Source: a virus
Direction: 5' to 3' (one strand)
DNA: 64,000 nucleotides
Virus record (IMG/VR): IMGVR_UViG_3300032294_001558
Of the stretch, positions 19,137 through 38,693 are shown one piece after another. The notes beneath the pieces were generated by a model. It was given only the letters and a program-made list of their open reading frames with translations, was not told the DNA's origin and did not search any database. A program made the position numbers and the translations under genes. Position 1 is the first letter of the stretch. Each line of letters opens with the position of its first letter.

Positions 19137-19361
19137 TCATACAACGCGCCAGACTCGGATGCCAAGCATCCCGGACTCGATTCTTTCGACGTAAGTCATC
19201 CCGTATTTCTTTTTAGAGTAGTACCGGGAAACTGCGGTGAAAGCTTTTTTTGGTGTCAAAGTAGGCAAGAAAAAACTATCGTTTACCGCCATATTATCCG
19301 GCACTCGATAGTTAACACCGCTTATTTTAAGCGGCTTTTGTACTACTGGCGGCTGTAGCAT
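19137..19361 (-). CDS. small conserved phage protein (..DSFF..GIRVWR family), paralog of 35925..36173
   Basis: Shares ..NMAVNDSFFLP.. and a C-terminal GIRVWR with the 82-aa ORF at 35925. Last gene of the - strand operon. Confidence 0.5.
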   Translation of the reverse strand: MLQPPVVQKPLKISGVNYRVPDNMAVNDSFFLPTLTPKKAFTAVSRYYSKKKYGMTYVERIESGMLGIRVWRVV

Positions 19362-22155
19362 CGTCTGTTAGCCCGAGCACTTGGGCGGCATCTTTAATGC
19401 AGTACGCACTGACTGGACCAAAGTCGGTGTCCCACCCTGCCCCCATACGCTTCTTGATTAGCTCAACTTCGCGTCCGGTCTCTTCATTAAAGAGAACGCG
19501 AATCTCTTTGGCGTTGATGTAGTTATCTGCGCACCAACGCGTAAAGTCTTTTTGGACAATAAACAGGGTCTTAGTGTCTGGCTCGTACCGCACCACCAAC
19601 CTACCCTTAGGCTTCATATACGGCTCGTTCTGCAACCCGTTGCTGCGCTGTTTAGAGTCGATAGTCAGCATGTTGTTGATGTTGTTGTTGATGAACGCAG
19701 CAAAAGTCTCGACAGCCCTAGTAGACTGTGACTGCATATCTGCGCCAGACTTTTTGACGACTGTAAGAATCTGCGCGGCGATTCTCGATATGTTGAAAGA
19801 GGTCAGTCCCAAAGTGTTAGTTATCACGCCCGCCGCCAGCGCGCAAACCACTTGGTTCAGCTTATACCGCTCTGTCTGAGTCCACGTGTGCTCCAGATAG
19901 ACCCAATCGCGAGTCTGCTCCCATACTCGCTGTACATACTCAATGTTCGAGACTACAAACGATATGAACAACGGCCCTGCGTGTCCGTAGTTGTCCTCAA
20001 GCTGGTTAAATACTTTCTGCGCGCCGAGAACATCATCAGGAACGGGTGTCCGGAGATGGATCTCAATAACACGGGCCATCTCCCCTTGCGGATCGAACTT
20101 GATTATTCCGAGCCTGTCTTCAATACTTGTGTTGCTTGACCAGATGCTGTTGCCCTTCCAAGTAATGTCGTTATGCCGCTCAGCGTTCTCCCCAGCCTTC
20201 ATACGGTCCCGCGCTCGACCTTGCGTACTGCCGTAGAGAAGCACCGACATCTCCTCTGGCTTTGTATTGGTCATCTCATCGAGGGTCATAGCAATACCGT
20301 TCAAAACCCCCATTCTATGGACCTTGGATAGATGGGTGTCTTGCGCGTCTTTCATCATCGCAGACGGGTTAGCGAAGATGGAGTTGATCATTTTTAGAAT
20401 AGTGGTTTTCCCGGTGCCACTTTTCTTAGAGAAGTAATTCAACACCCCGCCGTTCTCCGGCGAGAAATGCATCAACATACTGCCAAACCCAGTGAGCAGT
20501 CCGTAGGCGTGCAGATCACACTCAGGGCGGTTGTACATATCCACGACCCGCTTCCAGCCCTCCAGCGTGCCTTTCGGCCTGAACCAGTCTAGATATCTAT
20601 CAAGTGAGCGCGCTGCTGGAGTGTATTTAATACCCTTGTCTGTATACTCCCTATCACCAGCGATGAATGTGTTGTGCTTTGTCCAACCAAACCTCGCGTG
20701 TACGGCGTCTGCCTTGGTAGAAAGCTGCAAATCCTGAATAGAACGGGCAAAATAGTGTTGTAGCTGCTGTAGTTGCTTTTGGTTGTAAGTGGTGACGCCT
20801 TGCTCGTTCAGCTTGTCCCGAAGTTTTTCAGGAGCAGCGAATTCTTTCTGACTCATCATGAAGTCACGGACACCGTCGTTTGGCAAGTGGTGCCTCAACC
20901 ACAGCACGTCCCCTAGCTCTGAGTCGCGCATCCGCTTATAGATGTACAGGTCATGTGGGTACACCAGTTCGTATTCTTCTGGTGTGTCACCGTCATCGTC
21001 CCCCGACTTTTCCTTGTGCTTGACCATATACACGCCCCCATGCTTACCGCGAAGGTACGGCCACGGGTACGCGGGGATGTCGTAACGCCTCCCCCCTGCT
21101 TCAACAAAAGGCTTTTCTTCTACTCTCTGTAGGGCGATGGTGGCGCCAAGCTGGATAGGTGATGTGATCTTCCCTCCATGCGGGCAGCCAACGCAAAGCT
21201 CGGGACGGTCTAGAGACTGGAACGTCTCGCAGGTATAGGGGCCCTTCGTGAGGGCAGCTTTCCTCTCTGTCTCTTCGGGGCTGTAGTCAGGATGCCCCTT
21301 AGACACTTCGTGGATCGCCCAATCGCGGTCGTCGCACTGTTCGGCGATAGACAGCACCCCGCGCCAGCAAGGCTCCGTGACATTCTCTGGATGCTTGATG
21401 GCTTCAGCAATCTGCGCGCAGCCTTGGCCTTTGGTGGACTTGATCCAGATGGTTTCAAATTTACTAATCCGGTTATCCCACCCAGCCAGTGTCTTAGTGA
21501 TATTACTTAGCTTAGGTCTGCTTACCGTAGCGACAGGGGTAGGCGGTACTGCTACGTTGTTAAGGATACCGGCTAGTTTATCAAAGCTGTAGTGAACAAC
21601 ATCTGTCAGTAGAACTACTTGTGCGCCATTTTTTTGGTTGATCGTATCAGGGATACGTAGCACACGAACGACGTCCGCAGTACAGCCACCGTCTACGCTG
21701 AATCTTTCTGCTTTGCACAGCGCTTTCAGTCGCTCGGCTGCTTCAGTCCATTGGTGGACCGGCACCGCATCAGTAAATATCCAATGGGCGTGGTATCCAT
21801 TACCAGAATCGACGATTGTTGGTTTCGGTAGTTTTACCTTTTTGCAGAACTCTTTTAGAGCCTGCATTGCTTCTGTTTTGTTGCTGTACGGCTTACGGTC
21901 GCCGCAATCAACGTCTATATACAGTTCTCTCTTAGCTACAGCGTTTATAGCTTCGGCAGTTGTACCAGACCCAAACCCCGCTGTTGCGTAGTATACGTCA
22001 ACATCTTTTGGTAGTCCTTGCTTGATGTTTTCAACCATCTCTGAAGGACTGTTAAAGAATCGATTGAACGCGGTCTTGGTCTTCCTGTTTACGAATCTAA
22101 GAGAGTACCGTGCCCTTTCTGGGAGAATGCCTTGTAGGAAATCCAATTGGGACAT
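19327..22155 (-). CDS. bifunctional primase-polymerase / SF3 (D5/VirE-like) helicase
   Basis: N-terminal prim-pol motifs (ELYIDVDCGD, VDSGNGYHAHWIF). Walker A KKSGTGKTT. 942 aa. Confidence 0.8.
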   Translation of the reverse strand: MSQLDFLQGILPERARYSLRFVNRKTKTAFNRFFNSPSEMVENIKQGLPKDVDVYYATAGFGSGTTAEAINAVAKRELYIDVDCGDRKPYSNKTEAMQALKEFCKKVKLPKPTIVDSGNGYHAHWIFTDAVPVHQWTEAAERLKALCKAERFSVDGGCTADVVRVLRIPDTINQKNGAQVVLLTDVVHYSFDKLAGILNNVAVPPTPVATVSRPKLSNITKTLAGWDNRISKFETIWIKSTKGQGCAQIAEAIKHPENVTEPCWRGVLSIAEQCDDRDWAIHEVSKGHPDYSPEETERKAALTKGPYTCETFQSLDRPELCVGCPHGGKITSPIQLGATIALQRVEEKPFVEAGGRRYDIPAYPWPYLRGKHGGVYMVKHKEKSGDDDGDTPEEYELVYPHDLYIYKRMRDSELGDVLWLRHHLPNDGVRDFMMSQKEFAAPEKLRDKLNEQGVTTYNQKQLQQLQHYFARSIQDLQLSTKADAVHARFGWTKHNTFIAGDREYTDKGIKYTPAARSLDRYLDWFRPKGTLEGWKRVVDMYNRPECDLHAYGLLTGFGSMLMHFSPENGGVLNYFSKKSGTGKTTILKMINSIFANPSAMMKDAQDTHLSKVHRMGVLNGIAMTLDEMTNTKPEEMSVLLYGSTQGRARDRMKAGENAERHNDITWKGNSIWSSNTSIEDRLGIIKFDPQGEMARVIEIHLRTPVPDDVLGAQKVFNQLEDNYGHAGPLFISFVVSNIEYVQRVWEQTRDWVYLEHTWTQTERYKLNQVVCALAAGVITNTLGLTSFNISRIAAQILTVVKKSGADMQSQSTRAVETFAAFINNNINNMLTIDSKQRSNGLQNEPYMKPKGRLVVRYEPDTKTLFIVQKDFTRWCADNYINAKEIRVLFNEETGREVELIKKRMGAGWDTDFGPVSAYCIKDAAQVLGLTDDATAASSTKAA

Positions 22156-22197
22156 GACGACACGGGGTTAGCCGCGCAGGCGCAGCGGGGCAGGCAA

Positions 22198-22431
22198 TCA
22201 AGCCGGGGTGAGCCGCGAACGATAGTACGCCGCGACCTTGGGGCGCAAGTGCTTTCCCACCTCTCGCTTGCCCGAGAACCACTGGTAGACAGCAGCCTTG
22301 CAGACACCAAGGTCAAGGCAGACCTGGGTCACAGGAATCTGCCTGGAGATACACAAGCGCCCCAAGGAGACCCCGAGACGTTCGGGGTCAGCCTCCGCAT
22401 TCAGCCTGACGATCTTGGCTGAATACGGCAT
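22198..22431 (-). CDS. helix-turn-helix DNA-binding protein (77 aa)
   Basis: HTH-like IPVTQVCLDLGVCKAAVYQWFSGKR. The ATG at 22431 avoids overlap with the upstream gene; the ORF track's longer form starts at 22461. Confidence 0.55.
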   Translation of the reverse strand: MPYSAKIVRLNAEADPERLGVSLGRLCISRQIPVTQVCLDLGVCKAAVYQWFSGKREVGKHLRPKVAAYYRSRLTPA

Positions 22432-22432
22432 C

Positions 22433-23374
22433 TCAGTCGTCAGAGTCGGCGGCCCACTCACTCAGGATCGACTGCACGCTCACGGGTGCAGCGGTGGCCT
22501 TGGATTCCTTGACGGTGGGCTCGTCGGGATCTGTGGCGACGGGCGGCTTCACCTTGGCCTTCACAACGGGCGTAGCGGGCGCTGCGGGCGGTTGGGCGGC
22601 TGCCTTGGGCTGCACGAACACAGGCTGTTCGGTGGGCGCAGCGGGTGCCTCGGGGGTGCCATCAATTTCCGCCACCGTCATAGTGACTGCATCGATAGCT
22701 GCCTGATCATCCATACGAGCGATGACCTGTGCCCACTCAGCCTCTTCCAACGGGCGCACAGCAGAGAAAACGAGCTTCATGTTCGCCGAAGTATCGAAAC
22801 GCATCTCCGTGACAACCGCGTTGACTTCGATCCCATGCCCGCCAAGGAACCGCGCGTACTGCTGGAGCCCCATCTTACGCCCTTCGCCTTGTGCAAAAAG
22901 ACTGCTAGCGTTGATGTTCATGGCGAAAATGTCGCCTTCCATATCCGATGCGAGCAGCACAGCCAGACGCCGGCTATAACGGCACGCTTTGGACTCGCCT
23001 TGCCCAGAGCCCTTGATATCCTGCGGGCAACCGTTGCAGGTCTTGTGCTGCGGGGTCTTGACGTTCTCGTGCGGCTTGACGCTATCGTCGGACCAGCAGA
23101 CAGGGCGTGACTTCACGCCTTTTTCGTATTGTCCCCCGTAGTAAGTGCGAGCGTTGGCCTCGGCGGCACGAACAATCACGACGTTCATTGCGCGGTCTTC
23201 GTTGACAGCCACGGGCTTGCCGCCGACCATCATGGTGAAGACGTTGTTCTCAATACTGATCCGCTTACTGTTTCCGCCCCCCATGAGGGACTTAGTAAGA
23301 TCGCTCAGTTGCCCACGACGAAGATGCGGAGGCAGAACATTACCGGATTGAAACAGGGTGAGTTCAGACGACAT
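22433..23374 (-). CDS. putative ssDNA-binding protein (313 aa)
   Basis: Ala/Pro-rich linker followed by an acidic C-terminal tip (EWAADSDD). Cys cluster CWSDD..CNGCP..C. Sits next to the primase, as in N4-like phages (from memory). Confidence 0.4.
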   Translation of the reverse strand: MSSELTLFQSGNVLPPHLRRGQLSDLTKSLMGGGNSKRISIENNVFTMMVGGKPVAVNEDRAMNVVIVRAAEANARTYYGGQYEKGVKSRPVCWSDDSVKPHENVKTPQHKTCNGCPQDIKGSGQGESKACRYSRRLAVLLASDMEGDIFAMNINASSLFAQGEGRKMGLQQYARFLGGHGIEVNAVVTEMRFDTSANMKLVFSAVRPLEEAEWAQVIARMDDQAAIDAVTMTVAEIDGTPEAPAAPTEQPVFVQPKAAAQPPAAPATPVVKAKVKPPVATDPDEPTVKESKATAAPVSVQSILSEWAADSDD

Positions 23375-23375
23375 A

Positions 23376-23783
23376 TTAAGACCTTCTAACGGTTACAGTG
23401 TACTTTGACTCGACATTCATGCCTTTTGGCATCTTGTCAGGGTTAGACTTTAGGAATTCACTCATCGCGCGTTGCGCGATGCGCCGTTCAAGCAAATCTA
23501 GCGCGTTGTTCTCCTCGATAAACTTATGCATCGCCTCCCAATCAGATGTCCAGTAGCGGGTAGATACCCCACGAATAACTACACCAACACCGGGGATGCT
23601 GACATTGCCCCCCGCGCGCTTGCAGGTTTCAAGTAGGAATCCCTCTATCACTTCCATCTGGTCTTTGATCTTCTTATCTTCTTCTTCATATTTTGCCGAC
23701 AGAGCACTACGTGCTTCTCGCATCTTTAAATACGCTCTGACCAGTACTGGTGTCGGCGGCAGTTCACTGTGCGTCTCTTGCAT
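23376..23783 (-). CDS. hypothetical protein (135 aa)
   Basis: ORF in the operon, 1-nt gap to the downstream gene. Confidence 0.55.
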   Translation of the reverse strand: MQETHSELPPTPVLVRAYLKMREARSALSAKYEEEDKKIKDQMEVIEGFLLETCKRAGGNVSIPGVGVVIRGVSTRYWTSDWEAMHKFIEENNALDLLERRIAQRAMSEFLKSNPDKMPKGMNVESKYTVTVRRS

Positions 23784-23823
23784 TGGGGCCTCCTAGACAG
23801 ACTCGTAGTTTACATGAAAACTT

Positions 23824-26295
23824 TTAGGCGTCAAGTACCTCCTTGTACAGGTTCAGAAGCGAATCGAGGCTGGCGGTCTTGGACTCCAGCGCTTCATACT
23901 GCTTACGCTCGACCGGGGAGCCGCAGAGCTTGACCACCAAGCAGGGGTTTTTCTGGCCCGCCCGGTGGACGCGAGCATTGGCTTGGTGCCAGATTTCGTT
24001 AGAGGTCACAGGCCCCCACCACACGACAGTGTTGGCCGCGTGCAACGTCACACCATGCGAAGCAGCGGCGGGCTGAATCAACAGAATGCGTGGATCAGGT
24101 CCAGTCTGAAACGCCTTAAATATTTCTGTACGTTTATGAGCAGCTACACCACCATGAACTACTTCTACTGTGTATCCGTCTTTTTTCAGTTGGTTCTCTA
24201 GATGGTCTATTGCGTGCCGGAAAGGGACGAAGACAAGAACTTTGTGTGTGCTTTCTTCTATCGCTTCTAGTAAAACATTATACCGATGTGTCATGTCGAA
24301 CACTACGGTATTACCGTCGTCGGTATAGACCGCCCCACAGTTATGTACAATTAGCGGGGTGCCTGTAGCCCCCCGGACTACAAACCTACTGCGCGGCCCA
24401 CAGTTTACAAGGTCGTAGACTCGCTCCGTACCAGCGTAGTGAGCGCTTTCTCTAGCGGCCAGTTGTACCGAAACAGTCGCGCATGTAGCGTCGCTTTCTT
24501 TATACCGTAGACTTCCGCCGCCTGTGTTACCGTCAAACGGCCCTTTGGTGTATCCACCCACTGGTTGAACCGCGTATTGTTGGCTTGCTCCGTAGCCGTA
24601 GCCCATCGACAGTTCTCTGGACTGTACGGGCCATTCACGTTTATCCGATCTAACGCCAAACCATCGGCGTACCCTTCCTGCATGTCGGCCCAGAAATTCG
24701 CAAACGACTCTTCCCAATGTTTGCAAACAGTTATCCCCCGTGCTCCGTAATTTTGGTAGTCTTTGTCTTTTGGGTCTAAACATCTCCGCCGCATACCGGA
24801 CCATACGCGGTACGGGCGAGATTGCGTCATTCTGTGCGTTTCGTTCCCGTGATGGCAACCACAACTCCTTGGGTGCACCCTCTTCGTATTGCGAAGATAT
24901 TGGCTCTGCCTCTCCACAACCGCCCCGCAATCGCATTGACACACCCACTTCGCGCACTGACTTCCGCGCACCGTTGACTCGGCTCGCGCTAATACCACCA
25001 GGAAGCCGAACCTCTGCCCAGTCAAGTCCAGCGCCCGTCGCACGGGGTTTGAGTATGTCATCTGCCGTCGCCCATCCGTCATTTGTAAGCACCTTATGAT
25101 CTGCGGTCATACGAACCCCAGCAACGGTAACCAAGGGCTTTACACCCCGGAAGATCGCTCCTTGCTGGGCCACCCACTCCACGCCATCCCAAACGCGATG
25201 TTGTGGAGTAACGAGTTGGATTGGTAACCAACCTACGTCGGTTAATACGTCTGTGTTATACGATATACATGCTACCTGTAAAAGCTTGTTAAGATTAGTA
25301 GCCGCATTGACCGACGTTACGGTTTCTCCAGCGGCAGTCATTATAAACTGCTCTTTGAGGAGCTTGTAGTACTTAGACTGCTGCGGTGTGAGCGGGGCTT
25401 CGCGCGTGGTATACAGCAATTCCGGCAGGTCTAAGCATTCATCTTTCGTAAATCTGATCGCTGGCTGTAGTATTTTGTTAATCGTTTCGGCTGCATCAGT
25501 CTTAGGTTTCCACCTAAACTGTGTGAGTTTATACATCACTCTATCGCGGAATGTATAGAAATTTGATGGTATTGATCCCGGGTCCATCATTTTAGCTAGG
25601 CCATAAGCGTCAGTAGGACTTTGCGAGGCAGGGGTGCCAGTCAACATCCACAGCCACGTATTCGGCTGAATTAATGAGTTGATCGCTCTCCATCTTTTGG
25701 TGGTGGCGGTTTTTACTGCGTTGGCTTCGTCGATTATTACCAAATCGAAACCGCTATCTTTCAGGTCTGGTAGGACTGTTTCGACGCCATCAAAATTTAT
25801 GATGACAAACTCAGCATCGGATTGTATGACTTTAGTACGTTTCTCTCTGCTACCGTGAGCAATATCTACCCTGCGGTGCATGACCGTTTTGAACAGGTCA
25901 GCGCGCCACGCCGAGTTCATGATCGACAGTGGGCAGATCACCAAAACGCGTCTGACATGCCCCGTACGCAACAAGTAGTCCGCTGCCCACGCTACGCTTG
26001 CGGTCTTGGCGGTGCCCGGGTCGTTGAAACAATACGCTCTACGATGGAGTGTGAGAAACGAAGCTGTAGTCCGCTGGTGCGCAAATGGCGTATATATCCC
26101 CGGCCAGTTGTAGTGCTTTTCTATTGGCGATGGTACTTTCTTGACGCCTAGATTCTTTAGTACTTGGGACTCGTCTAGGCCCCAATAGACCAACACTGTG
26201 CCATCGGCTAGTTGTTTGGAACGGGGGATCGTTGCGAGCACCCGCTCGGGGTGCCGCAACTTAAGAAGCAAAGCTTTGTTCTCTACTATCTGCAT
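23824..26295 (-). CDS. SNF2/DEAD-like helicase precursor containing an intein
   Basis: Motif I DPGTAKT, motif II VIIDEAN, motif VI QANARVHRAGQ. Interrupted between ..LLQVA and CGAVYTDDG by a Hint-type element. Confidence 0.85.
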   Translation of the reverse strand: MQIVENKALLLKLRHPERVLATIPRSKQLADGTVLVYWGLDESQVLKNLGVKKVPSPIEKHYNWPGIYTPFAHQRTTASFLTLHRRAYCFNDPGTAKTASVAWAADYLLRTGHVRRVLVICPLSIMNSAWRADLFKTVMHRRVDIAHGSREKRTKVIQSDAEFVIINFDGVETVLPDLKDSGFDLVIIDEANAVKTATTKRWRAINSLIQPNTWLWMLTGTPASQSPTDAYGLAKMMDPGSIPSNFYTFRDRVMYKLTQFRWKPKTDAAETINKILQPAIRFTKDECLDLPELLYTTREAPLTPQQSKYYKLLKEQFIMTAAGETVTSVNAATNLNKLLQVACISYNTDVLTDVGWLPIQLVTPQHRVWDGVEWVAQQGAIFRGVKPLVTVAGVRMTADHKVLTNDGWATADDILKPRATGAGLDWAEVRLPGGISASRVNGARKSVREVGVSMRLRGGCGEAEPISSQYEEGAPKELWLPSRERNAQNDAISPVPRMVRYAAEMFRPKRQRLPKLRSTGDNCLQTLGRVVCEFLGRHAGRVRRWFGVRSDKREWPVQSRELSMGYGYGASQQYAVQPVGGYTKGPFDGNTGGGSLRYKESDATCATVSVQLAARESAHYAGTERVYDLVNCGPRSRFVVRGATGTPLIVHNCGAVYTDDGNTVVFDMTHRYNVLLEAIEESTHKVLVFVPFRHAIDHLENQLKKDGYTVEVVHGGVAAHKRTEIFKAFQTGPDPRILLIQPAAASHGVTLHAANTVVWWGPVTSNEIWHQANARVHRAGQKNPCLVVKLCGSPVERKQYEALESKTASLDSLLNLYKEVLDA
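24340..25269 (-). mobile_element. intein (310 aa, Hint splicing blocks, no in-frame endonuclease motif)
   Basis: Cys1 codon at 25267-25269 (CISYNTDVLTDVGW). Block-B-like RMTADHKVLT. C-terminus VYDLV..PLIVHN, with the Asn codon at 24340-24342, followed by Cys+1. Confidence 0.8.
24405..25082 (-). CDS. HNH_3-like homing endonuclease encoded in the +1 frame inside the helicase intein
   Basis: 225 codons. Motifs GQRFGFLVVL, WVCQCDCG, YQNYGARGITVCKHW, LDRINVNGPYSPENCRWATATEQANN. Frame offset from the intein start is 187 nt (mod 3 = 1). Confidence 0.65.
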   Translation of the reverse strand: MTDGRRQMTYSNPVRRALDLTGQRFGFLVVLARAESTVRGSQCAKWVCQCDCGAVVERQSQYLRNTKRVHPRSCGCHHGNETHRMTQSRPYRVWSGMRRRCLDPKDKDYQNYGARGITVCKHWEESFANFWADMQEGYADGLALDRINVNGPYSPENCRWATATEQANNTRFNQWVDTPKGRLTVTQAAEVYGIKKATLHARLFRYNWPLEKALTTLVRSESTTL

Positions 26296-26837
26296 TAACG
26301 CAACTCAAACTTACAAGCTGCCGCGCGTTCGATAAGGTCAAGGGCCTGGGTCGTAGCGTCATCAAGAGCGTTGTGCGGTACCCCTACGTTCTGCTTCTTC
26401 TCCTTCGTACCAAACATAGCCCGGATAGTTCGGTAGCAGCGGTCGTTCCAAAAATGCCAAGGGGTATCCATTTTCATGAGACGGTAGGCAGCGGCGAGCA
26501 GCGCATTATCAAAGTTTGCACCGTTGCCCCAAACCACTGCTACGTCTTGTGGAGGCATCCACATAGAGAACTTAATGAGTGCGAGGTCGATTTTAAGCGT
26601 ACCAGAAAATGCAGCAGTTCTGGCTTCTTCTGACTGTTTAGACCACCACTCCAAAGTACTTTTTTGCGCGCGGAATCCGGCTTCTTTACAGGACTCTGAG
26701 TCAATCGCAACATAGAATTTTTCGGCAATTCCTTTTTCGGCGCTGAACTTAACTGCGCCGATAGATAGGATCGTATCCCCCGGCCTTGTGCCCAGGGTCT
26801 CAAGATCAATCATTACATGCTTAAGATCGTTGTCCAT
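26295..26837 (-). CDS. DnaQ-like 3'-5' exonuclease
   Basis: MIDLETLG (DxE) and PHNALDDA motifs. TAATG coupling with the helicase. Confidence 0.75.
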   Translation of the reverse strand: MDNDLKHVMIDLETLGTRPGDTILSIGAVKFSAEKGIAEKFYVAIDSESCKEAGFRAQKSTLEWWSKQSEEARTAAFSGTLKIDLALIKFSMWMPPQDVAVVWGNGANFDNALLAAAYRLMKMDTPWHFWNDRCYRTIRAMFGTKEKKQNVGVPHNALDDATTQALDLIERAAACKFELR

Positions 26838-26858
26838 TTCTTCTCCTAAATACCAAGA

Positions 26859-26907
26859 TGGTTCGATGAGGGGATCTCATCGAACCGTAGACCCCAATCT
26901 TGTTGGG
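26859..26907 (-). terminator. two strong intergenic hairpins (terminator or RNA-processing site)
   Basis: GGTTCGATGA (26859-26868) pairs with TCATCGAACC (26876-26885). CCCCAA (26891-26896) pairs with TTGGGG (26902-26907). There is no clear U-run. Confidence 0.3.
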
Positions 26908-26930
26908 GATTAAACCCGCTCTAAGCGGTG

Positions 26931-27197
26931 TCAGGCCCCGCTTCGCGGGCTCTTGTAGTTTTTTGCGCTGTTGGCGCTAAAAGACTTAAGCCGGACGTTC
27001 CCTGGCTTGCTTTTCCCACCATCTTTGATGGGCTTGATGTGGTCTAGGGCTTTCCCTTCCCGGGAAGCTCGCCCGTGCTCTTTATCCCAAGCACGTCTAG
27101 CCCGCTGTCTTTCCGACTGCTTAGCCCGCCCACCATTTGCGAGGAAGTCTCTGTACTCTTTTTGGTGGTTTCTATCAGACTTGTTTTTGTAAGGCAT
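26931..27197 (-). CDS. small stand-alone HNH nuclease (88 aa)
   Basis: LDHIKPIKDGGKSKPGNV (DH..P..GG..N). Very basic N-terminus. Confidence 0.5.
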   Translation of the reverse strand: MPYKNKSDRNHQKEYRDFLANGGRAKQSERQRARRAWDKEHGRASREGKALDHIKPIKDGGKSKPGNVRLKSFSANSAKNYKSPRSGA

Positions 27198-27234
27198 TCG
27201 TTATCTCCAAAATCCAATTCCAACTGGACCCAGT

Positions 27235-27906
27235 TCATGTATTAGCTCCATTATGGGGACAGGTAGTAACGACGCAATGGCGACGGCAAAGCCCCGACGG
27301 ATTAGGGTTCCATACGTTTGTGCGGATTGCGGTTTCCAGTCGTTGGATATCTTGCATCCATTGCCGCCAGTAGACTTTTTCACGTTCTACTGTGTATTCA
27401 GCGGGCTTGAAGTGGTTCGCTACTACGAACAGCAGCCCGCCCTTGACCCTACGCACTGAGGGGAAGTGTTTGAAGACCAGCAAGGCCATCAACTCCAACT
27501 GTGCTGTATCTGCGTATTTGGCAGAGCGGCTCGTCTTGTAGTCCACGACCCGGGCAGAGCCTTTGTCCTCGTTGACGATCAGGAGGTCCACGACCCCCCG
27601 GCACCATACATCAGGCGCGTCAAACGCGCAAGGGTGCAGATCCTTGGTCAGGCCCATCTTGTGCTCGCACAGCTTAGTCCCGGGGATGTTTCGCAGGGCA
27701 TCGAGGTGGGGCTTGACGTAGCCGAAGGCCCCAGGCAGGGGGGTGCCGTCTCGCACGTAAGACTCGGCTGCTTCGTGGAAATTCGTGCCGTATAGCGTAG
27801 CCTCTGTGAACGGTGGCTCCACAAAGTTGCGGAAGACTTTTACCTCTGCATACTGTCTCGGACAAGTCTTAAATTTTTTTAGGCTACTAAACGACCACGC
27901 TTTCAT
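27235..27906 (-). CDS. PD-(D/E)XK nuclease, Cas4/RecB-like with a Cys cluster
   Basis: VVDLLIV...ARVVDYKTS core. N-terminal CPRQY plus C-terminal CRRHCVVTTCPHNG cysteines. Confidence 0.65.
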   Translation of the reverse strand: MKAWSFSSLKKFKTCPRQYAEVKVFRNFVEPPFTEATLYGTNFHEAAESYVRDGTPLPGAFGYVKPHLDALRNIPGTKLCEHKMGLTKDLHPCAFDAPDVWCRGVVDLLIVNEDKGSARVVDYKTSRSAKYADTAQLELMALLVFKHFPSVRRVKGGLLFVVANHFKPAEYTVEREKVYWRQWMQDIQRLETAIRTNVWNPNPSGLCRRHCVVTTCPHNGANT

Positions 27907-28088
27907 CGCCTATTTTCTTCCATTATTGAAAGAGTATGCTGGAGCAGCCGCCCTTCGACACAAAGGCTCTCGGCCTTCAACCGCGCTTTTTCATATTCGT
28001 GGCTCAGACAAAGATGGTGAATCTCTTTCGCAAGCTTTTCGATCTGTATTAGCGGCATTGCGTAGTCAACAATCTCGTCATTCTTCAT
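27903..28088 (-). CDS. hypothetical protein (61 aa)
   Basis: ATGA overlap with the downstream gene. Lies in the operon. Confidence 0.45.
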   Translation of the reverse strand: MKNDEIVDYAMPLIQIEKLAKEIHHLCLSHEYEKARLKAESLCVEGRLLQHTLSIMEENRR

Positions 28089-30855
28089 CAGCCATTTCCC
28101 CGTAATTATAGCCCCATTTGGACTCGCAGTTGATCGGCAGCCCCGCTGCCCAGGGAGGCACCCAACGCATGCAGGACTCGATGTAAGCCCGCGCCTCGCC
28201 TAGCTCGGCCTCGCGCACTACGGCCAGAATACTATCATGGACGGTCAAGGCCACACGGTACTTCTTTGCAATGCGCAGCAACTGCGACATCACAATAATA
28301 CGGGCGAGTGCCTGAGTACAGTTCTCAACCAATTTCCCGCCGTATATATCTACTAGTCCTGTGTCGTCTTTATACTGCCACCGCATTACTTGTCGGTTCG
28401 GGTCCTGTGTCCGGTGCAGTTGCGGGTAGCTGACGTACAGCCCGCTGGGCAGGCGCACGCCTTTCTTTCCCTCGATGAGCAGCACACCCTCGCGCCCGAG
28501 CCACCGGGTCTTGTTGGCGTGCATGGACTCGATGCACTGCTCGGCCTCGTACCACAGATTTTTGATACGGTCATTAGTCATGCGATAAATGTCAATGATC
28601 CGCTGGCACTCTTGAATATCAAGATCCATTGGCGGGTTTGCGGTCTTTAGCGTAGCCTGTAGTTTGAAGGCCCCGGTTTGGTAACCGCAATTATGTACGA
28701 TCAGCGCCCCCGCTGCTGTCAACACAGTGAATCTGTTGTTCGGTCCTGCTAAGGCGATGTCGTAGGTCTGCATTTTCTGTTTTAAGACGCTCGATCTCCT
28801 GTTGTAGGACTGACACCCTGCGTCTATTGTTGGCGTTCTCGCCTCTAGTACACCACCGAAGATTCCCAGGTTCGTAGCCTTTATCGTTGTCGATCCGGTC
28901 AAGTTCAAGTAGAGGGTTGTCCCAGCCCGGCAGAGAAATGATGTATCGCAGAAACGCCCTGCGGTCTTTAGTCCACGCCGGATAAACTCGTATACCTCTC
29001 CCGCCGTAATTTTCGTACTGTCTACAAGTCGGTATTTCGCATCGGTTAATGCAGGAAGATATTCTATTAAGGAGGCGTTCTCTTGTTGCGTCATCTGGAA
29101 CGGTGTCGGCATACCCCCAATAGTGTTTGCGTGTTTTAGCAGACGCTTTCCTTGCGCAATCCCCGCATCTAGCAGTTTTTTTATTGATGAAGTTACTACG
29201 GTGAACAAGACCTTCCCATCCGCAAGTACACTTGACGCGCGGGTTCCAGCCTTCACTGTATCCGTTTTTCCGTAATTGTTGTTCCCAGCCAATGACGGTA
29301 AGGTCGCCCTGTTGAGTGCCGATTGGAGCAGGGAAGGGTTTGAATGGACCTCGGACCACGCCCGCCATCCATGTCCCGTCAGGATTTCGTGGTCCGCCGT
29401 GGCGTGCAACATCAAATCCGTTTGTGTTTCTGTTATTCGGTACCCCTGATTCAACAATCCGCTGTGGCTCACCCATGATTCCCCATCCCATAGTTTGTCA
29501 GATAGCTGGACCCGTACGATAGTCTTCCAGCCTGAGTCTGTCAAGACTTGGGTATCAGGTCCGAAGCACCCGAGGACCACTGTTTTTCCTAGGAACCTTT
29601 CGTTCTTGTTAGCCTTCGTAATTGGACGGCCGTAGATACGACTCGCCATTTTGCAATACACATCGACTCCGTTGGCGAAATCCTCAACAAGATCGTTCTG
29701 CCTCGCCAGCCACGCCAATACCCGAGCTTCGATGTTGGACGAATCAGAATCAATCAGAACGTGCCCAGGCGGGGCTTCAATACATGCTTTGAGTTCTGTA
29801 CCCCCTCGTGCAGGTAGGTTTTGAAGATTAATATTATCGCCGCCGCTCGTTCTTTTTGTTCTTGCGTAGCTATACTTGAGAGGGACTGGTAGTACTGGGT
29901 TACGCTTAGCGATGTCGATAAACGTACTTGTGCGGGTCTCCTCCAGCGTGCTTTTGGTCCCCAGGCGCGCAGCTACGGCGGTCTGCACTCGCTCATCAGG
30001 ATGGTCCAGCAGGGCTTTAAGTCCGGGGTCGGTCTTAGCGAATGCGAACGCCGGTTTCCCCGTCGTCTTGCTGATCTTCATGGGCGGCTCGACACCCAGT
30101 TCCTTCAGTACCTCGGCAAACTGCGGGTTCGACGATAGCCGCTCCTTACTGAACTCTGTCTTACTTAGAAGCTCTTCCTTGCGCTTGATCACCCCTGCGA
30201 GGTGCGCTTCCAGCTTCTCCTTGTTCAGCCGCAGCACAGGCTCCGAGAACATCCTGATATGCCGGTCGATGAGCCGCAACTCCTCCAGGGGGTAGTTGTC
30301 CCGCTTGTCGAACTCCTCGATGTTGTACCAGCCCTCGGACATCGTGTGCCACATGTCGTAGCAAAGCTTAACGTCATGCAGGCAGTAGGCTGCGTATCGG
30401 CTGAACCCCTCGGAGGTGAAGTCTTCTCTACGCTTGCCCATCGCGTTTTGCACCTCGGTGCCCTTATCCTCGAAGCCGTACCGCTTGGCAAGCATGGCGA
30501 GAGAGTTGTTCCGGGACCCAAACATGGCACGGGCCATAGACAGGGTGTCTAGCCACGCGCGGGGATTAACGTCAAAGAGCCACGAGAAGATGGCTGAGTC
30601 GAACATCGTGTTGTGGCACAGCACGGCGTACTTACCCCAGTCTACCGCGTCCAGTCTATATTTGATGTCCGCGTGGGTGCCAGTGACCACTTCTGTAGTG
30701 CCATCGGGCCACCGAAGCCCGAGCATTATAACTTCAAATCGTGGGTCACGTACATACGCCTCAGTAGTTAGTTTTGTGAGGCTGTATTCTTTGTCGTAGT
30801 ACGTTTCAAAGTCCGCGGTGATTATTTCCATATGTCTCTCTAAACCACTGCTCAA
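28078..30855 (-). CDS. family A DNA polymerase precursor containing an intein in motif B
   Basis: 3'-5' exonuclease motif ITADFETY. Motif A LIDSDSSNIEARVLAW. Motif B split as RFLGKTVVLG / CGYQTGAFKL. Motif C LTVHDS. Confidence 0.9.
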   Translation of the reverse strand: MSSGLERHMEIITADFETYYDKEYSLTKLTTEAYVRDPRFEVIMLGLRWPDGTTEVVTGTHADIKYRLDAVDWGKYAVLCHNTMFDSAIFSWLFDVNPRAWLDTLSMARAMFGSRNNSLAMLAKRYGFEDKGTEVQNAMGKRREDFTSEGFSRYAAYCLHDVKLCYDMWHTMSEGWYNIEEFDKRDNYPLEELRLIDRHIRMFSEPVLRLNKEKLEAHLAGVIKRKEELLSKTEFSKERLSSNPQFAEVLKELGVEPPMKISKTTGKPAFAFAKTDPGLKALLDHPDERVQTAVAARLGTKSTLEETRTSTFIDIAKRNPVLPVPLKYSYARTKRTSGGDNINLQNLPARGGTELKACIEAPPGHVLIDSDSSNIEARVLAWLARQNDLVEDFANGVDVYCKMASRIYGRPITKANKNERFLGKTVVLGCFGPDTQVLTDSGWKTIVRVQLSDKLWDGESWVSHSGLLNQGYRITETQTDLMLHATADHEILTGHGWRAWSEVHSNPSLLQSALNRATLPSLAGNNNYGKTDTVKAGTRASSVLADGKVLFTVVTSSIKKLLDAGIAQGKRLLKHANTIGGMPTPFQMTQQENASLIEYLPALTDAKYRLVDSTKITAGEVYEFIRRGLKTAGRFCDTSFLCRAGTTLYLNLTGSTTIKATNLGIFGGVLEARTPTIDAGCQSYNRRSSVLKQKMQTYDIALAGPNNRFTVLTAAGALIVHNCGYQTGAFKLQATLKTANPPMDLDIQECQRIIDIYRMTNDRIKNLWYEAEQCIESMHANKTRWLGREGVLLIEGKKGVRLPSGLYVSYPQLHRTQDPNRQVMRWQYKDDTGLVDIYGGKLVENCTQALARIIVMSQLLRIAKKYRVALTVHDSILAVVREAELGEARAYIESCMRWVPPWAAGLPINCESKWGYNYGEMADEE
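28690..29568 (-). mobile_element. intein (293 aa), paralog of the helicase intein
   Basis: Cys1 codon at 29566-29568 (CFGPDTQVLTDSGW). Block B ATADHEILT. C-terminus YDIALAGPNNRFTVL..ALIVHN, with the Asn codon at 28690-28692, then Cys+1. Confidence 0.85.
28691..29491 (-). CDS. HNH_3-like homing endonuclease encoded in the +2 frame inside the polymerase intein
   Basis: 266 codons. Motifs GDLTVIGWE, YENYGGRGIRVYPAW, LELDRIDNDKGYEPGNLRWCTRGENANN. Its TAA (28691-28693) overlaps the intein His-Asn codons. A shorter start at Met42 is possible. Confidence 0.65.
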   Translation of the reverse strand: MGWGIMGEPQRIVESGVPNNRNTNGFDVARHGGPRNPDGTWMAGVVRGPFKPFPAPIGTQQGDLTVIGWEQQLRKNGYSEGWNPRVKCTCGWEGLVHRSNFINKKTARCGDCARKASAKTRKHYWGYADTVPDDATRERLLNRISSCINRCEIPTCRQYENYGGRGIRVYPAWTKDRRAFLRYIISLPGWDNPLLELDRIDNDKGYEPGNLRWCTRGENANNRRRVSVLQQEIERLKTENADLRHRLSRTEQQIHCVDSSGGADRT

Positions 30856-31117
30856 GTAGATCGAGCGTATCTTCGCGGACCACCATTGCAGCGCCGCCCG
30901 CTTTATGGATAGCGGTGATCTCTCGCTCTTGCAGAGCGGTGGGTTTGTTATATCCGGCCTTGCATTCTACTGCAAGAAACCTGCCTCGGTAGCAGATGAT
31001 GATGTCGGGTATACCCGCACGACCGTAACCGTTCTGCGCGGGGAAAAAATGCCACGCACCATAGCGCGTGATAAGCTCTACGCACTTACGTTTGACTTTG
31101 CTTTCAGGTGTGGTCAT
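30806..31117 (-). CDS. VRR-NUC domain nuclease
   Basis: GIPDIIICYRGRFLAVECKAG (D..ExK). 103 aa. Confidence 0.7.
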   Translation of the reverse strand: MTTPESKVKRKCVELITRYGAWHFFPAQNGYGRAGIPDIIICYRGRFLAVECKAGYNKPTALQEREITAIHKAGGAAMVVREDTLDLLEQWFRETYGNNHRGL

Positions 31118-37484: not shown

Positions 37485-38693
37485 CTACGCCGGTACATAG
37501 AGAGACACCCCGCAAGGGGCAGTAATACCTTTAGTGCTGATGCACCACAGCACCGGGGCGTTCCATTCGCCCCAGTTTTTGCCCACATAGCCGTCAGTAA
37601 AGTGGATGATGCAGTCGGGCTTAATACCTTTAGCAGCGAGGTAACGAGAGACACTGGTCGGGTCCGTACCGCCGCCGCCCTTGGGCTTAGTCACATCTGC
37701 GATAGACGTAACAGCATCGCCTTCGTATACCTCATGAGCGGCTACTGTCGTGTCCCAGTAAATCACATCGACGATCTCGGGCTTGACCGTCTCGCAGGCA
37801 CTGACGATCTCGGTCATAGCACGCCGGAGTTGTGCTTCGCCGATTGACCCACTAGTGTCGCAGGTAACTACAACGCGCTTCATCGTTTCACTGATCCTGC
37901 TCGGCATGTACGCATCCTGCGCCATCCACCTACGCGACGGTTTGCGCCACGTTGACATATCGCTACCAGCAGCATGCGTGCGGTAAAAATCTTTCAGTTG
38001 ATCGCGCCAGTCAACAGTGACTTCCAACAGGTCTTTGATACTACGATCTACGTTAGCACCCATCTTGCCAGCAGCAATAACGGCTTGCCGGATAGCGGTA
38101 TCAACGGCCTTGGCAACTTCCGTCGCTTCCGACGCGCCCAGCGCTTCGCCTGACTTGCGGCTACTGCCATCCCCAGGTGCGGACTTAGCCGGCCGATGCT
38201 CGTCCATTGGTTGGGCTTTGCCGCCGCTAGCGCTGCGTTGCGCTTTCTGTTGTTGTTGTCGTTGCTGTTTCATCCGGCGATAGACCTCACCCGTATCCAT
38301 CCCTTCGTACTGGTAATCGAGGATGGCGTGCGGCCACACCGTCAGCCAGTTGTCCGCCCCCTTGCCAGCGAGCTTATCGAGTTGAAGGTTGATTACCGCA
38401 TCCGCCGCTATGTTGGCGGTATCAGAGTCTTCGTCCCACAGATGCTTCCAAGTGATCATATGGAGGTAGAGCACGTGATAGTACTCGTGCAGCACAACGA
38501 AACGCAGTGTAGCGTCGTCCAGCGTGTCGATGAATTGACGGCCGACGAGTACATCACGGCCGTTAGTAGCCGCGGTGGGGAGTCCATCCGCAACAATACA
38601 GTCGCCGGTCATCATGATACCCGACAAGGCGATGAACCTTGGTTCGCGCATGATCGCAACTCGCGCCCGTAGAAGTCTGTCTTGCTGGTTCAT
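37485..38693 (-). CDS. VWA-domain protein with an N-terminal HExxH metallopeptidase-like domain (DUF2201/CobT-like)
   Basis: VVLHEYYHVLYLH (HExxH). MIDAS motif VTCDTSGS. 402 aa. Partner of the AAA+ gene. Confidence 0.7.
   Translation of the reverse strand: MNQQDRLLRARVAIMREPRFIALSGIMMTGDCIVADGLPTAATNGRDVLVGRQFIDTLDDATLRFVVLHEYYHVLYLHMITWKHLWDEDSDTANIAADAVINLQLDKLAGKGADNWLTVWPHAILDYQYEGMDTGEVYRRMKQQRQQQQKAQRSASGGKAQPMDEHRPAKSAPGDGSSRKSGEALGASEATEVAKAVDTAIRQAVIAAGKMGANVDRSIKDLLEVTVDWRDQLKDFYRTHAAGSDMSTWRKPSRRWMAQDAYMPSRISETMKRVVVTCDTSGSIGEAQLRRAMTEIVSACETVKPEIVDVIYWDTTVAAHEVYEGDAVTSIADVTKPKGGGGTDPTSVSRYLAAKGIKPDCIIHFTDGYVGKNWGEWNAPVLWCISTKGITAPCGVSLYVPA

Follow-up and report, generated by a model that had tools for sequence, protein, structure and literature searches.

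We analysed a stretch of viral DNA of 64,000 nucleotides (IMG/VR record IMGVR_UViG_3300032294_001558), referred to in its full length as the window, with attention to a family A DNA polymerase (PolA) gene that carries an intein and, inside the intein, a second open reading frame (ORF) in an alternate frame. The PolA precursor was recognised from the ORF list and by Pfam, whose DNA_pol_A model matches it (2.9e-23) in two stretches. Its probable ATG start is at position 30831, with the N-extein spanning 30831-29569 and the C-extein 28689-28078. The polymerase reading is broken between ..ERFLGKTVVLG and CGYQTGAFKL.., at a site which corresponds to the Lys/Tyr-containing motif B (O-helix) of Pol I enzymes. 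Specifically, the insert begins with Cys1 (TGC, 29568-29566), carries ATADHEILT as block B and ends in ..ALIVHN, encoded up to the CAT AAT at 28695-28690, and it is followed by a +1 Cys (TGC, 28689-28687). The elements of the locus are the following:

28078..30855, minus strand: PolA precursor ORF, 925 codons
28690-29568, minus strand: class-1 intein in motif B (..GKTVVLG / C...HN / CGYQTG..), 879 nt, 293 codons
29359..29568, minus strand: N-terminal splicing region, blocks A-B, codons 1-70, where the intein frame is the selected frame
28690..28773, minus strand: C-terminal splicing region, blocks F-G, the last 28 codons, ..YDIALAGPNNRFTVLTAAGALIVHN, where the intein frame is again the selected frame
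29491 to 28691, minus strand: alternate-frame ORF in the +2 frame, 266 codons from the first ATG, or 261 amino acids from the conserved ATG at 29476-29474
28691..28693, minus strand: TAA stop of the alternate ORF, within the His-Asn codons CAT-AAT

The coordinates of the intein, the alternate ORF and its stop had been proposed in an earlier reading of the letters alone (the sequence-only reading), and all of them proved correct.

Searches of both frames of the insert against Pfam and NCBIfam returned no intein model and no HNH match. Since these databases are blind to the insert, we built a mini-intein alignment from the first 82 and the last 36 residues of 32 homologues, in which C1, T57, H60, H292 and N293 are invariant. 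In addition, His-Asn followed by Cys or Ser (HN/C or HN/S) closes all 41 inteins that were extracted in full from related loci. When compared with all PDB sequences, the mini-intein profile matched inteins only, namely NEQ068 (1.6e-4) and the Spl DnaX mini-intein (2.5e-4, positions 3-112), and then the DnaB and RecA inteins. Once the insert is removed, the joined exteins align continuously with phage PolA genes that lack an intein. From the selection on the splice residues and the unbroken extein alignment, we infer that the insert is a class-1 intein and that it splices. An intein splitting PolA motif B, as first proposed, is therefore supported both by its C1, TxxH and HN+C residues and by profile matches to solved inteins, and the invariance of the splice residues excludes the dead intein that the sequence-only reading had considered as an alternative.

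Amino-acid conservation was then compared among the three frames. In the N-terminal splicing region, values of 0.30-0.65 were obtained for the intein frame, against 0.14-0.32 for the other two frames. In the middle, the intein frame (0.15-0.33) behaves like the non-coding third frame (0.15-0.31), whereas the alternate frame reaches 0.5-0.8. This mid-part of the intein frame has no Pfam or NCBIfam matches either, in agreement with the earlier description of the central residues as featureless.

Several lines of evidence bear on the alternate ORF as a gene in its own right. Over its span, the third frame contains 26-27 stops. When the alternate ORF was recoded synonymously (n=20,000), the intein frame acquired 5.6 stops on average and came out stop-free in 0.075% of the recodings; the intein frame is kept open by selection. 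The alternate-frame protein matches phrog_374 at 4.8e-29, together with three related PHROGs, and has 640 homologues in a metagenome protein database. By tblastn, homologues were found in Salmonella Jerseyviruses, under the 'intein-containing DNA polymerase precursor' (39% amino-acid identity), and in EBPR siphovirus 2, under gp51 (49.5% identity), in both cases at a +2 offset relative to the polymerase frame as annotated. In each of 42 viral contigs that the alternate-frame family profile had retrieved (L003-L044, 33-74% identity), the alternate ORF is embedded in a longer ORF, the latter being in the frame of the alternate ORF plus one, and the enclosing ORF measures 600-1200 codons wherever the contig is complete. 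Together with the two GenBank lineages, the two-frame layout is present in 44/44 of the closest relatives; overall, it recurs in 40+ independent metagenomic contigs and in >100 finished GenBank phage genomes. Remoter relatives, alike over the core only (about 35% identity), are mostly free-standing genes.

Substitutions were counted in 14 intein pairs with 71-91% DNA identity, and sorted by intein codon positions 1/2/3:

First 80 codons: 137/134/279
Middle: 319/1204/459
Last 28 codons: 58/37/184

The window and its closest relative, L003, show the same distribution, with 11/11/20 at the N end, 29/96/41 in the middle and 4/4/12 at the C end. The alternate frame has its wobble position at position 2 of the intein codons, and this pattern indicates that purifying selection acts at the two ends on the intein frame and, between them, on the alternate frame. 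A substitution profile in steps of 10 codons reproduced the frame switch and revealed two short stretches that are slow at all three positions, which argues that both frames are constrained there:

29299..29388, minus strand: dual-constraint zone 1, intein codons 61-90, rates 0.06-0.19 at all three positions
28750..28779, minus strand: dual-constraint zone 2, in block F, TYDIAL over alternate-frame ADLRHRL, rates 0.06/0.09/0.28

At the C end, a helix of the alternate-frame protein runs into block F, and the same bases encode TYDIAL and ADLRHRL. At the other end, the first ~50 residues of the alternate-frame protein are disordered and unconserved, so that its N end rides on intein blocks A-B.

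In conclusion, these comparisons show that the alternate ORF is a real, selected gene, overlapping both splicing regions as had been proposed, and with a coding capacity supported by its relatives and by the codon-phase pattern. What has to be reversed is the direction implied by the term 'overprinted' in the sequence-only reading: the nuclease-like gene, with its free-standing relatives, is the older one, and the intein linker is the unconstrained reading. An origin of the alternate ORF as a de novo overprinted gene was rejected, given its free-standing homologues (hhalign 3.7e-45) and the derived state of the linker reading.

The beginning of the alternate ORF was located by comparison with its relatives. 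The open frame of 266 codons starting at ATG 29491 is real, as claimed earlier, but the conserved start is the second ATG, at 29476, where most homologous proteins begin with MG... This ATG is formed by the last base of the variable intein codon 31 and the TG of the invariant Trp32 (xxA-TGG). Upstream of it, the splicing region contains three further signals:

29539..29544, minus strand: -35-like hexamer TTGACA on the Leu9-Thr10 codons of block A, from a promoter scan
29516..29521, minus strand: -10-like hexamer TATCGT, 17 nt past the -35 and 40 nt before ATG 29476
29480..29489, minus strand: predicted Shine-Dalgarno-like stretch GGGATGGGGA, rich in purines, within the conserved W-D-G-E codons that precede ATG 29476, from the sequence and the family alignment

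Third-codon positions were scanned over the first 75 codons, leaving out those fixed by one- or two-codon amino acids, and three only were strongly conserved: those of the -35, the -10 and the ATG. With lineages taken as independent and shared ancestry ignored, the ATG-forming base is A in 32/41 inteins, against a third-position background of 24% (binomial p=6e-13); Leu9 is TTG in 33/39, against 28% for Leu codons elsewhere (p=4e-13); and the third base of codon 16 is T in 32/41, against a background of 19% (p=9e-16), despite the variable amino acid. Across the family, the conserved third positions take the shape TTGACA-17 nt-TATnGT plus ATG. The other four-fold sites of the same intein region show background composition, which indicates that synonymous sites are otherwise saturated. 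A promoter-like site with a 17-nt spacer occurs at this exact position in 27/41 inteins, two of them with a perfect TTGACA-17-TATAAT, compared with 12 promoter-like sites elsewhere in 35,811 nt of intein sequence. The promoter match of the window is not significant alone, and it gains significance from the family alignment. Taken together, the sigma70-like promoter and the conserved ATG suggest an autonomous expression cassette.

Two other starts were considered and rejected. ATG 29491 is separated from the second ATG position by an in-frame stop in many relatives, for example at nt 86 or 89, though A is somewhat enriched at the site of this first ATG too (27/41). For the NTG codons at intein nt 194/200, ATG, GTG and TTG occur at about the same frequency, which is what any xxN-TGG would give.

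The stop of the alternate ORF had been described as falling exactly at the intein boundary. This is true in the window, and it is a limit forced by CAT-AAY, not a conserved or design feature: CAT-AAY always has TAA in the +2 frame, so that no +2 ORF can outrun an intein ending in this way. The alternate ORF reaches the CAT-AAT junction in 9/45 loci, the window counted, and in the rest it stops 5-20 codons earlier, inside blocks F-G.

The distribution of the intein among related polymerases provides information on its mobility. Two loci (L083:1501-1974 and L084:1501-1974) carry an intein-less PolA with 96.2% nucleotide identity to the spliced junction of the window. Their empty site reads ..GGAAAAACAGTGGTCGTCGGG^TGCGGTTACCAAACCGGGGC.. 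(also given as ..AAAACAGTGGTCGTCGGG^TGCGGTTACCAAACC..), and near the insertion point the sole difference is CTC (Leu) in the window versus GTC (Val) in these loci, two codons before the site. This junction is a putative homing target, and the existence of near-identical intein-less alleles indicates that the element is, or recently was, mobile. A comparable polymorphism was observed in the Guernseyvirinae, where, among the 685 records matched, hundreds have an uninterrupted PolA and about 150 have the intein, alleles of both kinds being about 91-97% identical in amino acids to the Jerseyvirus junction query. At many loci the exteins are 24-34% identical to those of the window, compared with 45-55% for the splicing domains and the alternate-frame core. 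Finally, homologous inteins occupy two points of motif B four codons apart, GKxxxLG/CGY in the window and most other loci, and GKx/(C/S)xLGLGY in L001, L021, L025, L030 and L032, which points to a shift of the target site within the motif. The presence/absence polymorphism, the contrast in conservation and the two insertion sites fit a homing element; they do not single out the protein that cuts.

The protein encoded by the alternate ORF was modelled with AF2, with a pLDDT of 85 overall and >90 for residues 50-250. Three parts can be distinguished:

29156..29230, minus strand: zinc-ribbon-like element CxC...CxxC (C88, C90, C109, C112), in a confidently modelled region
28817..29089, minus strand: HNH_3-like beta-beta-alpha module (YGGRGI ... 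LDRIDNDKGYEPGNLRWCTRGENANN), with Arg199 at 28897-28895
28724..28816, minus strand: long C-terminal helix forming a coiled-coil-like tail (AF2 helix 226-256), which enters block F

In an alignment of 116 sequences, the residues of the CxC...CxxC, YGGRGI and LDRIDN.. motifs are invariant or at least 90% conserved. Specifically, C88, C90 and C112 are invariant and C109 is at least 90% conserved, while in the core motif LDRIDNxxGYEPGNLR(F/W)xTRxEN the invariant residues are D198, R199 and N210, with N219 and N222 conserved to at least 90%. The core is modelled at a pLDDT of 91.7, with a beta strand at 196-199, a second at 211-214 and an alpha helix at 216-221 on the LDRIDN motif, which parallels the HNH_3 pattern vDHiD..NN...NLR..T..eN. 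In an hhalign comparison with the canonical HNH_3 domain of a related protein (L060), the catalytic His aligns with R199 (E=0.0076, 33 columns). The tail gives weak bZIP/leucine-zipper matches in Pfam and coiled-coil matches in the PDB. Other searches were less informative: the family profile against PDB sequences returned coiled-coil noise from the tail only, Foldseek found nothing significant in the PDB with either the full model or the core model, and BFVD contained only uncharacterised or loosely named phage proteins. No characterised member emerged from the PDB profile and BFVD structure searches, and none of the cluster names of NCBI and JGI homologues was informative. As judged from motif and model, the alternate-frame protein is an HNH_3-derived, His-less module, for which nuclease activity is putative. 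We note that the part coding for the zinc ribbon contains an A7 run (window 29176-29182, minus strand; intein nt 386-392), which is not conserved in the closest relative and is a possible hotspot of slippage or sequencing error.

The window contains a second intein of the same kind, and both of its inteins carry an out-of-frame ORF:

24340..25269, minus strand: homologous intein in an SNF2-type helicase (ORF 23824-26295), whose ends align to the polymerase intein (E=6e-13)
25082-24405, minus strand: helicase hidden ORF, 225 codons, in the +1 frame, between blocks B and F

The core of the helicase hidden ORF is 35% identical to the polymerase copy (E=1e-11) and matches phrog_374 at 2.3e-61. Its C-terminus gives a weak helix-turn-helix match and not a coiled coil, and among cultured phages its closest relatives are genes that stand free and are annotated 'HNH endonuclease', such as orf78 of Pseudomonas phage D3. 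No equivalent internal promoter was found in the helicase intein, in which Leu9-Thr10 is encoded by TTA-ACC and not by TTGACA; a good Shine-Dalgarno sequence (AAGGTG) lies 7 nt before the ATG of the hidden ORF. The different frames and tails of the two copies suggest either that related inteins captured free-standing genes on separate occasions or that the copies have long been evolving apart.

Outside the window, one contig (L044:3087-5636) has a homologous intein with a hidden ORF whose flanks, ..LLLNRPSE/C...HN/CYVLFRH.., do not align with PolA motif B, and its host ORF may be a different gene. Other relatives from the same family, here called D-R, are situated within long ORFs but at another offset, or beneath features annotated 'DNA polymerase'; they come from L075:2395-5211, L050 and L051, and also from the Caulobacter phages GB2A/RW/RLK/KcrB and Shewanella phage SFCi1. 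These cases may represent further independent hidden genes in inteins.

As for the genomic setting, the polymerase intein resides in a minus-strand replication module (window 19327-31117), with primase/helicase, SNF2 helicase with intein, exonuclease, PD-(D/E)XK nuclease and PolA with intein. A megablast of the PolA region against GenBank phages gave no match. The nearest cultured PolA (Rhizobium phage RHph_TM3_14A; Pseudomonas phage KPP25 group) is only 34% identical, which indicates that the phage of the window is uncultured. The start of the PolA ORF is overlapped by a 103-amino-acid ORF (30806-31117, minus strand) that matches phrog_93 'endonuclease' (2.4e-19) and contains a PD...ExK-like motif, with no Pfam match; it is a possible partner nuclease. 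In Jerseyvirus, a 95-amino-acid gene with a borderline VRR_NUC match (6.3e-5) lies between PolA and the helicase. Elsewhere in the module, an 88-amino-acid ORF (26931-27197, minus strand) carries a ..ALDHIKPIKDGG...N.. motif resembling a small canonical HNH; it matches only phrog_4590, of unknown function (3.4e-14), and nothing in Pfam.

The gene embedded in the polymerase intein stands where an intein would usually have its endonuclease domain, in frame. The locus is probably best explained as a composite selfish element, made of a splicing domain of the mini-intein type and of a homing-endonuclease gene of the free-standing type placed in the -1/+2 frame. According to this model, the polymerase precursor would be translated through the intein frame, with the middle ~190 codons serving as an unconstrained, stop-free linker, and Cys1, TxxH and HN+Cys would splice the intein out, restoring motif B. 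The embedded gene would be expressed independently, from the sigma70-like TTGACA-17-TATCGT in block A, a weak Shine-Dalgarno-like stretch and the ATG formed by xxA-TGG. Its product of ~29 kDa would consist of a disordered N-terminus, a zinc ribbon, an HNH_3-derived beta-beta-alpha module and a dimerising helix; it would recognise the intein-less motif-B allele and promote a break or a nick, and repair would then copy the intein and the gene together (homing). A more far-reaching version, which we put forward tentatively, sees a complete cassette in the intein splicing domain, a His-less HNH-derived product that homes by non-canonical (Arg/Tyr) catalysis or through a recruited nuclease, and an old, stable partnership that moved between sites four codons apart, the related helicase intein having its gene in a different frame.

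Artefacts and a different route of expression were weighed against this model. The idea that errors of sequencing or assembly shifted the frame of an ordinary HNH intein, or that the ORF is decaying in a polymerase that no longer splices, has a sole formal point in its favour, the failure of Pfam to recognise either an intein or an HNH domain, and it deserves hardly any credence: the same layout recurs in all the independent contigs and finished phage genomes counted above, which excludes the sequencing error that the sequence-only reading had itself raised, the intein frame is open against an expectation of 0.075%, purifying selection acts in the alternate frame and at the splice residues, and the start codon is conserved. 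Production of the alternate-frame protein without separate initiation, by programmed -1 frameshifting or transcriptional slippage that would yield an N-extein-intein(N)-HNH fusion, also seems very improbable. The alternate frame is indeed the -1 frame of the host gene, open from intein nt 71 onward, and the A7 run lies within the window's alternate ORF; however, that run sits midway through the zinc ribbon and lacks conservation, no -1 slippery heptamer occurs within the initial 300 nt of the window's intein, and the 4/41 relatives that have one carry it at non-homologous positions. This lack of a conserved heptamer argues against frameshifting from the polymerase frame, as do the ATG that a synonymous position preserves at intein nt 92 and the in-frame stops just upstream of it in many relatives. 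On the other side, some observations speak against expression from the internal promoter and against a nuclease role of the product. As regards the promoter, 14/41 inteins have no promoter-like site by the scan criteria, and the count of such sites within the window alone is not above the shuffled expectation.

As regards the nuclease, no Pfam HNH or HNH_3 match was found at E<=10 with either the whole ORF or the core, the PHROG HNH-labelled families being the only matches. Arg replaces the general-base His in all 116 embedded members and in the 27 free-standing members with the motif, and no invariant His exists anywhere in the alternate-frame family. Foldseek against the PDB ranks HNH proteins first, at non-significant values (Gme HNH, E=0.61; PacI, E=0.86; also ScoMcrA). 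The PHROG label 'HNH endonuclease' is itself fallible, as a 402-amino-acid ORF of the window (37485-38693, minus strand) matches phrog_1314 at 4.9e-77 and is resolved by Pfam into DUF2201_N (a putative metallopeptidase) and a VWA-like domain. Moreover, in two free-standing relatives the D-R module is joined to genuine nuclease domains: in L060:3422-4474 it is preceded by a Pfam HNH_3 domain (1.7e-7) and followed by an AP2-like tail, and in L061:3620-4879 it is followed by a VRR-NUC-like C-terminus (1.8e-4). These fusions make a nuclease role of the module only putative; such a pattern is typical of DNA-binding modules, and the D-R module may be a DNA-binding unit. The protein could then be a His-less, HNH-derived, sequence-specific DNA-binding protein, acting in collaborative or trans homing with a separate nuclease (for instance the VRR-NUC-like ORF 30806-31117), or serving the phage otherwise, in regulation or site protection. 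The small nuclease-like genes that flank PolA both in the window and in Jerseyvirus would suit this explanation, which we nevertheless regard as unlikely. D198, R199, N210 and N219/N222 are strictly conserved, as a preserved metal-site-like constellation and not a decayed one, and the extra nuclease domain is found in only 2/30 free-standing relatives. Most family members stand alone: they are abundant, occur sporadically and often number several copies per phage genome, in the manner of autonomous homing endonuclease genes. Not all HNH enzymes have the canonical His; PacI, which uses a Tyr, is among the top, non-significant, fold matches. All considered, it is rather likely that the alternate-frame protein is the homing nuclease. 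The HNH identity advanced by the sequence-only reading thus holds as regards the PHROG-labelled families and the motif resemblance, and does not hold as regards a Pfam domain and the catalytic His.

These observations have some practical consequences. More than 100 sequenced phages, including Salmonella Jerseyviruses investigated for phage typing and therapy, carry in their polymerase intein a gene that is unannotated or called 'hypothetical', and such loci will be misread by gene callers and by intein databases that assume an endonuclease in the intein frame. The family would be the third nuclease family in the out-of-frame class, and it supports the view that inteins gain mobility by capturing free-standing endonuclease genes. 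The promoter and start, apparently kept at synonymous sites of the splicing domain, offer a concrete answer to the question of how hidden endonucleases are expressed. Culturable relatives of Jerseyvirus exist both with and without the intein, and the His-to-Arg HNH-like module represents a large uncharacterised phage family.

Compared with known systems, the element shares with canonical in-frame HNH inteins and with I-HmuI-type HNH_3 enzymes the beta-beta-alpha fold, the D-x-I-D/N ... N-L-R ... T ... N pattern and the position of the endonuclease; it differs from them in being out of frame, in having Arg for the general-base His and in lacking a Pfam HNH/HNH_3 match. In the fractured genes of Dassa et al. 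(2009), split inteins reportedly have a free-standing endonuclease gene between their halves. There too, the splicing function and a separately translated endonuclease gene are reported to travel as one unit at one site, but the host gene and the intein are split into two ORFs, whereas in the window no stop interrupts the host frame across the endonuclease gene; evolution may plausibly have passed through a split state. The Jerseyvirus 'intein-containing DNA polymerase precursor' and 'intein containing helicase precursor' (e.g. OL770276) belong to the same element family, with the same +2 offset and the amino-acid identity given above. Unlike in the window, the insertion lies four codons upstream (GKA/CELGLGY), and the alternate ORF is unannotated or a 'hypothetical protein'; we found no paper describing an out-of-frame ORF in the PolA or helicase inteins of Jerseyvirus-like phages.

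The window shows the features that define an intein whose homing endonuclease is encoded out of frame, namely a same-strand ORF inside the intein boundaries and a mid-intein shift of selection. Papers of the Gogarten laboratory from 2025-2026 describe such endonucleases, so the architecture is known, though very recent. A 2025 preprint reported inteins with a homing endonuclease in another frame, an endonuclease VII-like protein in frame 3 in actinobacteriophages, as the first report of this kind, along with antisense LAGLIDADG and VSR-like cases (Gosselin 2025). Those inteins resemble the present one in the structureless in-frame middle, in the same-strand gene of homing-endonuclease type in another frame, in the sporadic occurrence among close relatives and in the proposed origin, a free-standing endonuclease gene invading an intein. 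They differ in the protein, which is endonuclease VII-like there and combines a zinc ribbon with a His-less HNH_3-like module here, in the hosts, actinophages there and proteobacterial-type phages here, and in that the present ORF overlaps both splicing regions; the preprint makes no mention of a promoter or start codon. A cyanobacterial dnaX intein has a LAGLIDADG homing endonuclease in the +2 frame (Phillips, DeSimone and Gogarten, bioRxiv 10.64898/2026.09.14.751524). It shows the same offset and a frame-dependent selection in which purifying selection moves to the endonuclease frame mid-intein, but it combines LAGLIDADG with a cellular gene, in contrast to the phage genes for PolA and helicase with their HNH-like module; that preprint reports no internal promoter, the word 'promoter' having 0 occurrences in it. 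In the ShiLan domain, an HNH endonuclease is hidden out of frame in a mycobacteriophage methylase insertion (Arsenault et al., Genes 2025, PMC11855218). As in the window, an HNH-type alternate-frame gene lies in an open insertion, starts a few codons in and has its TAA in the last bases of the insertion; that insertion, however, has no detectable splicing domains and is thought to be retained in the protein, while here an intein with all splice residues is present. In comparison with these systems, the present element is new in that its nuclease-like family is another one, its clade is large and old, its hidden ORF overlaps the splicing regions at both ends, and a putative internal promoter and a start are conserved.

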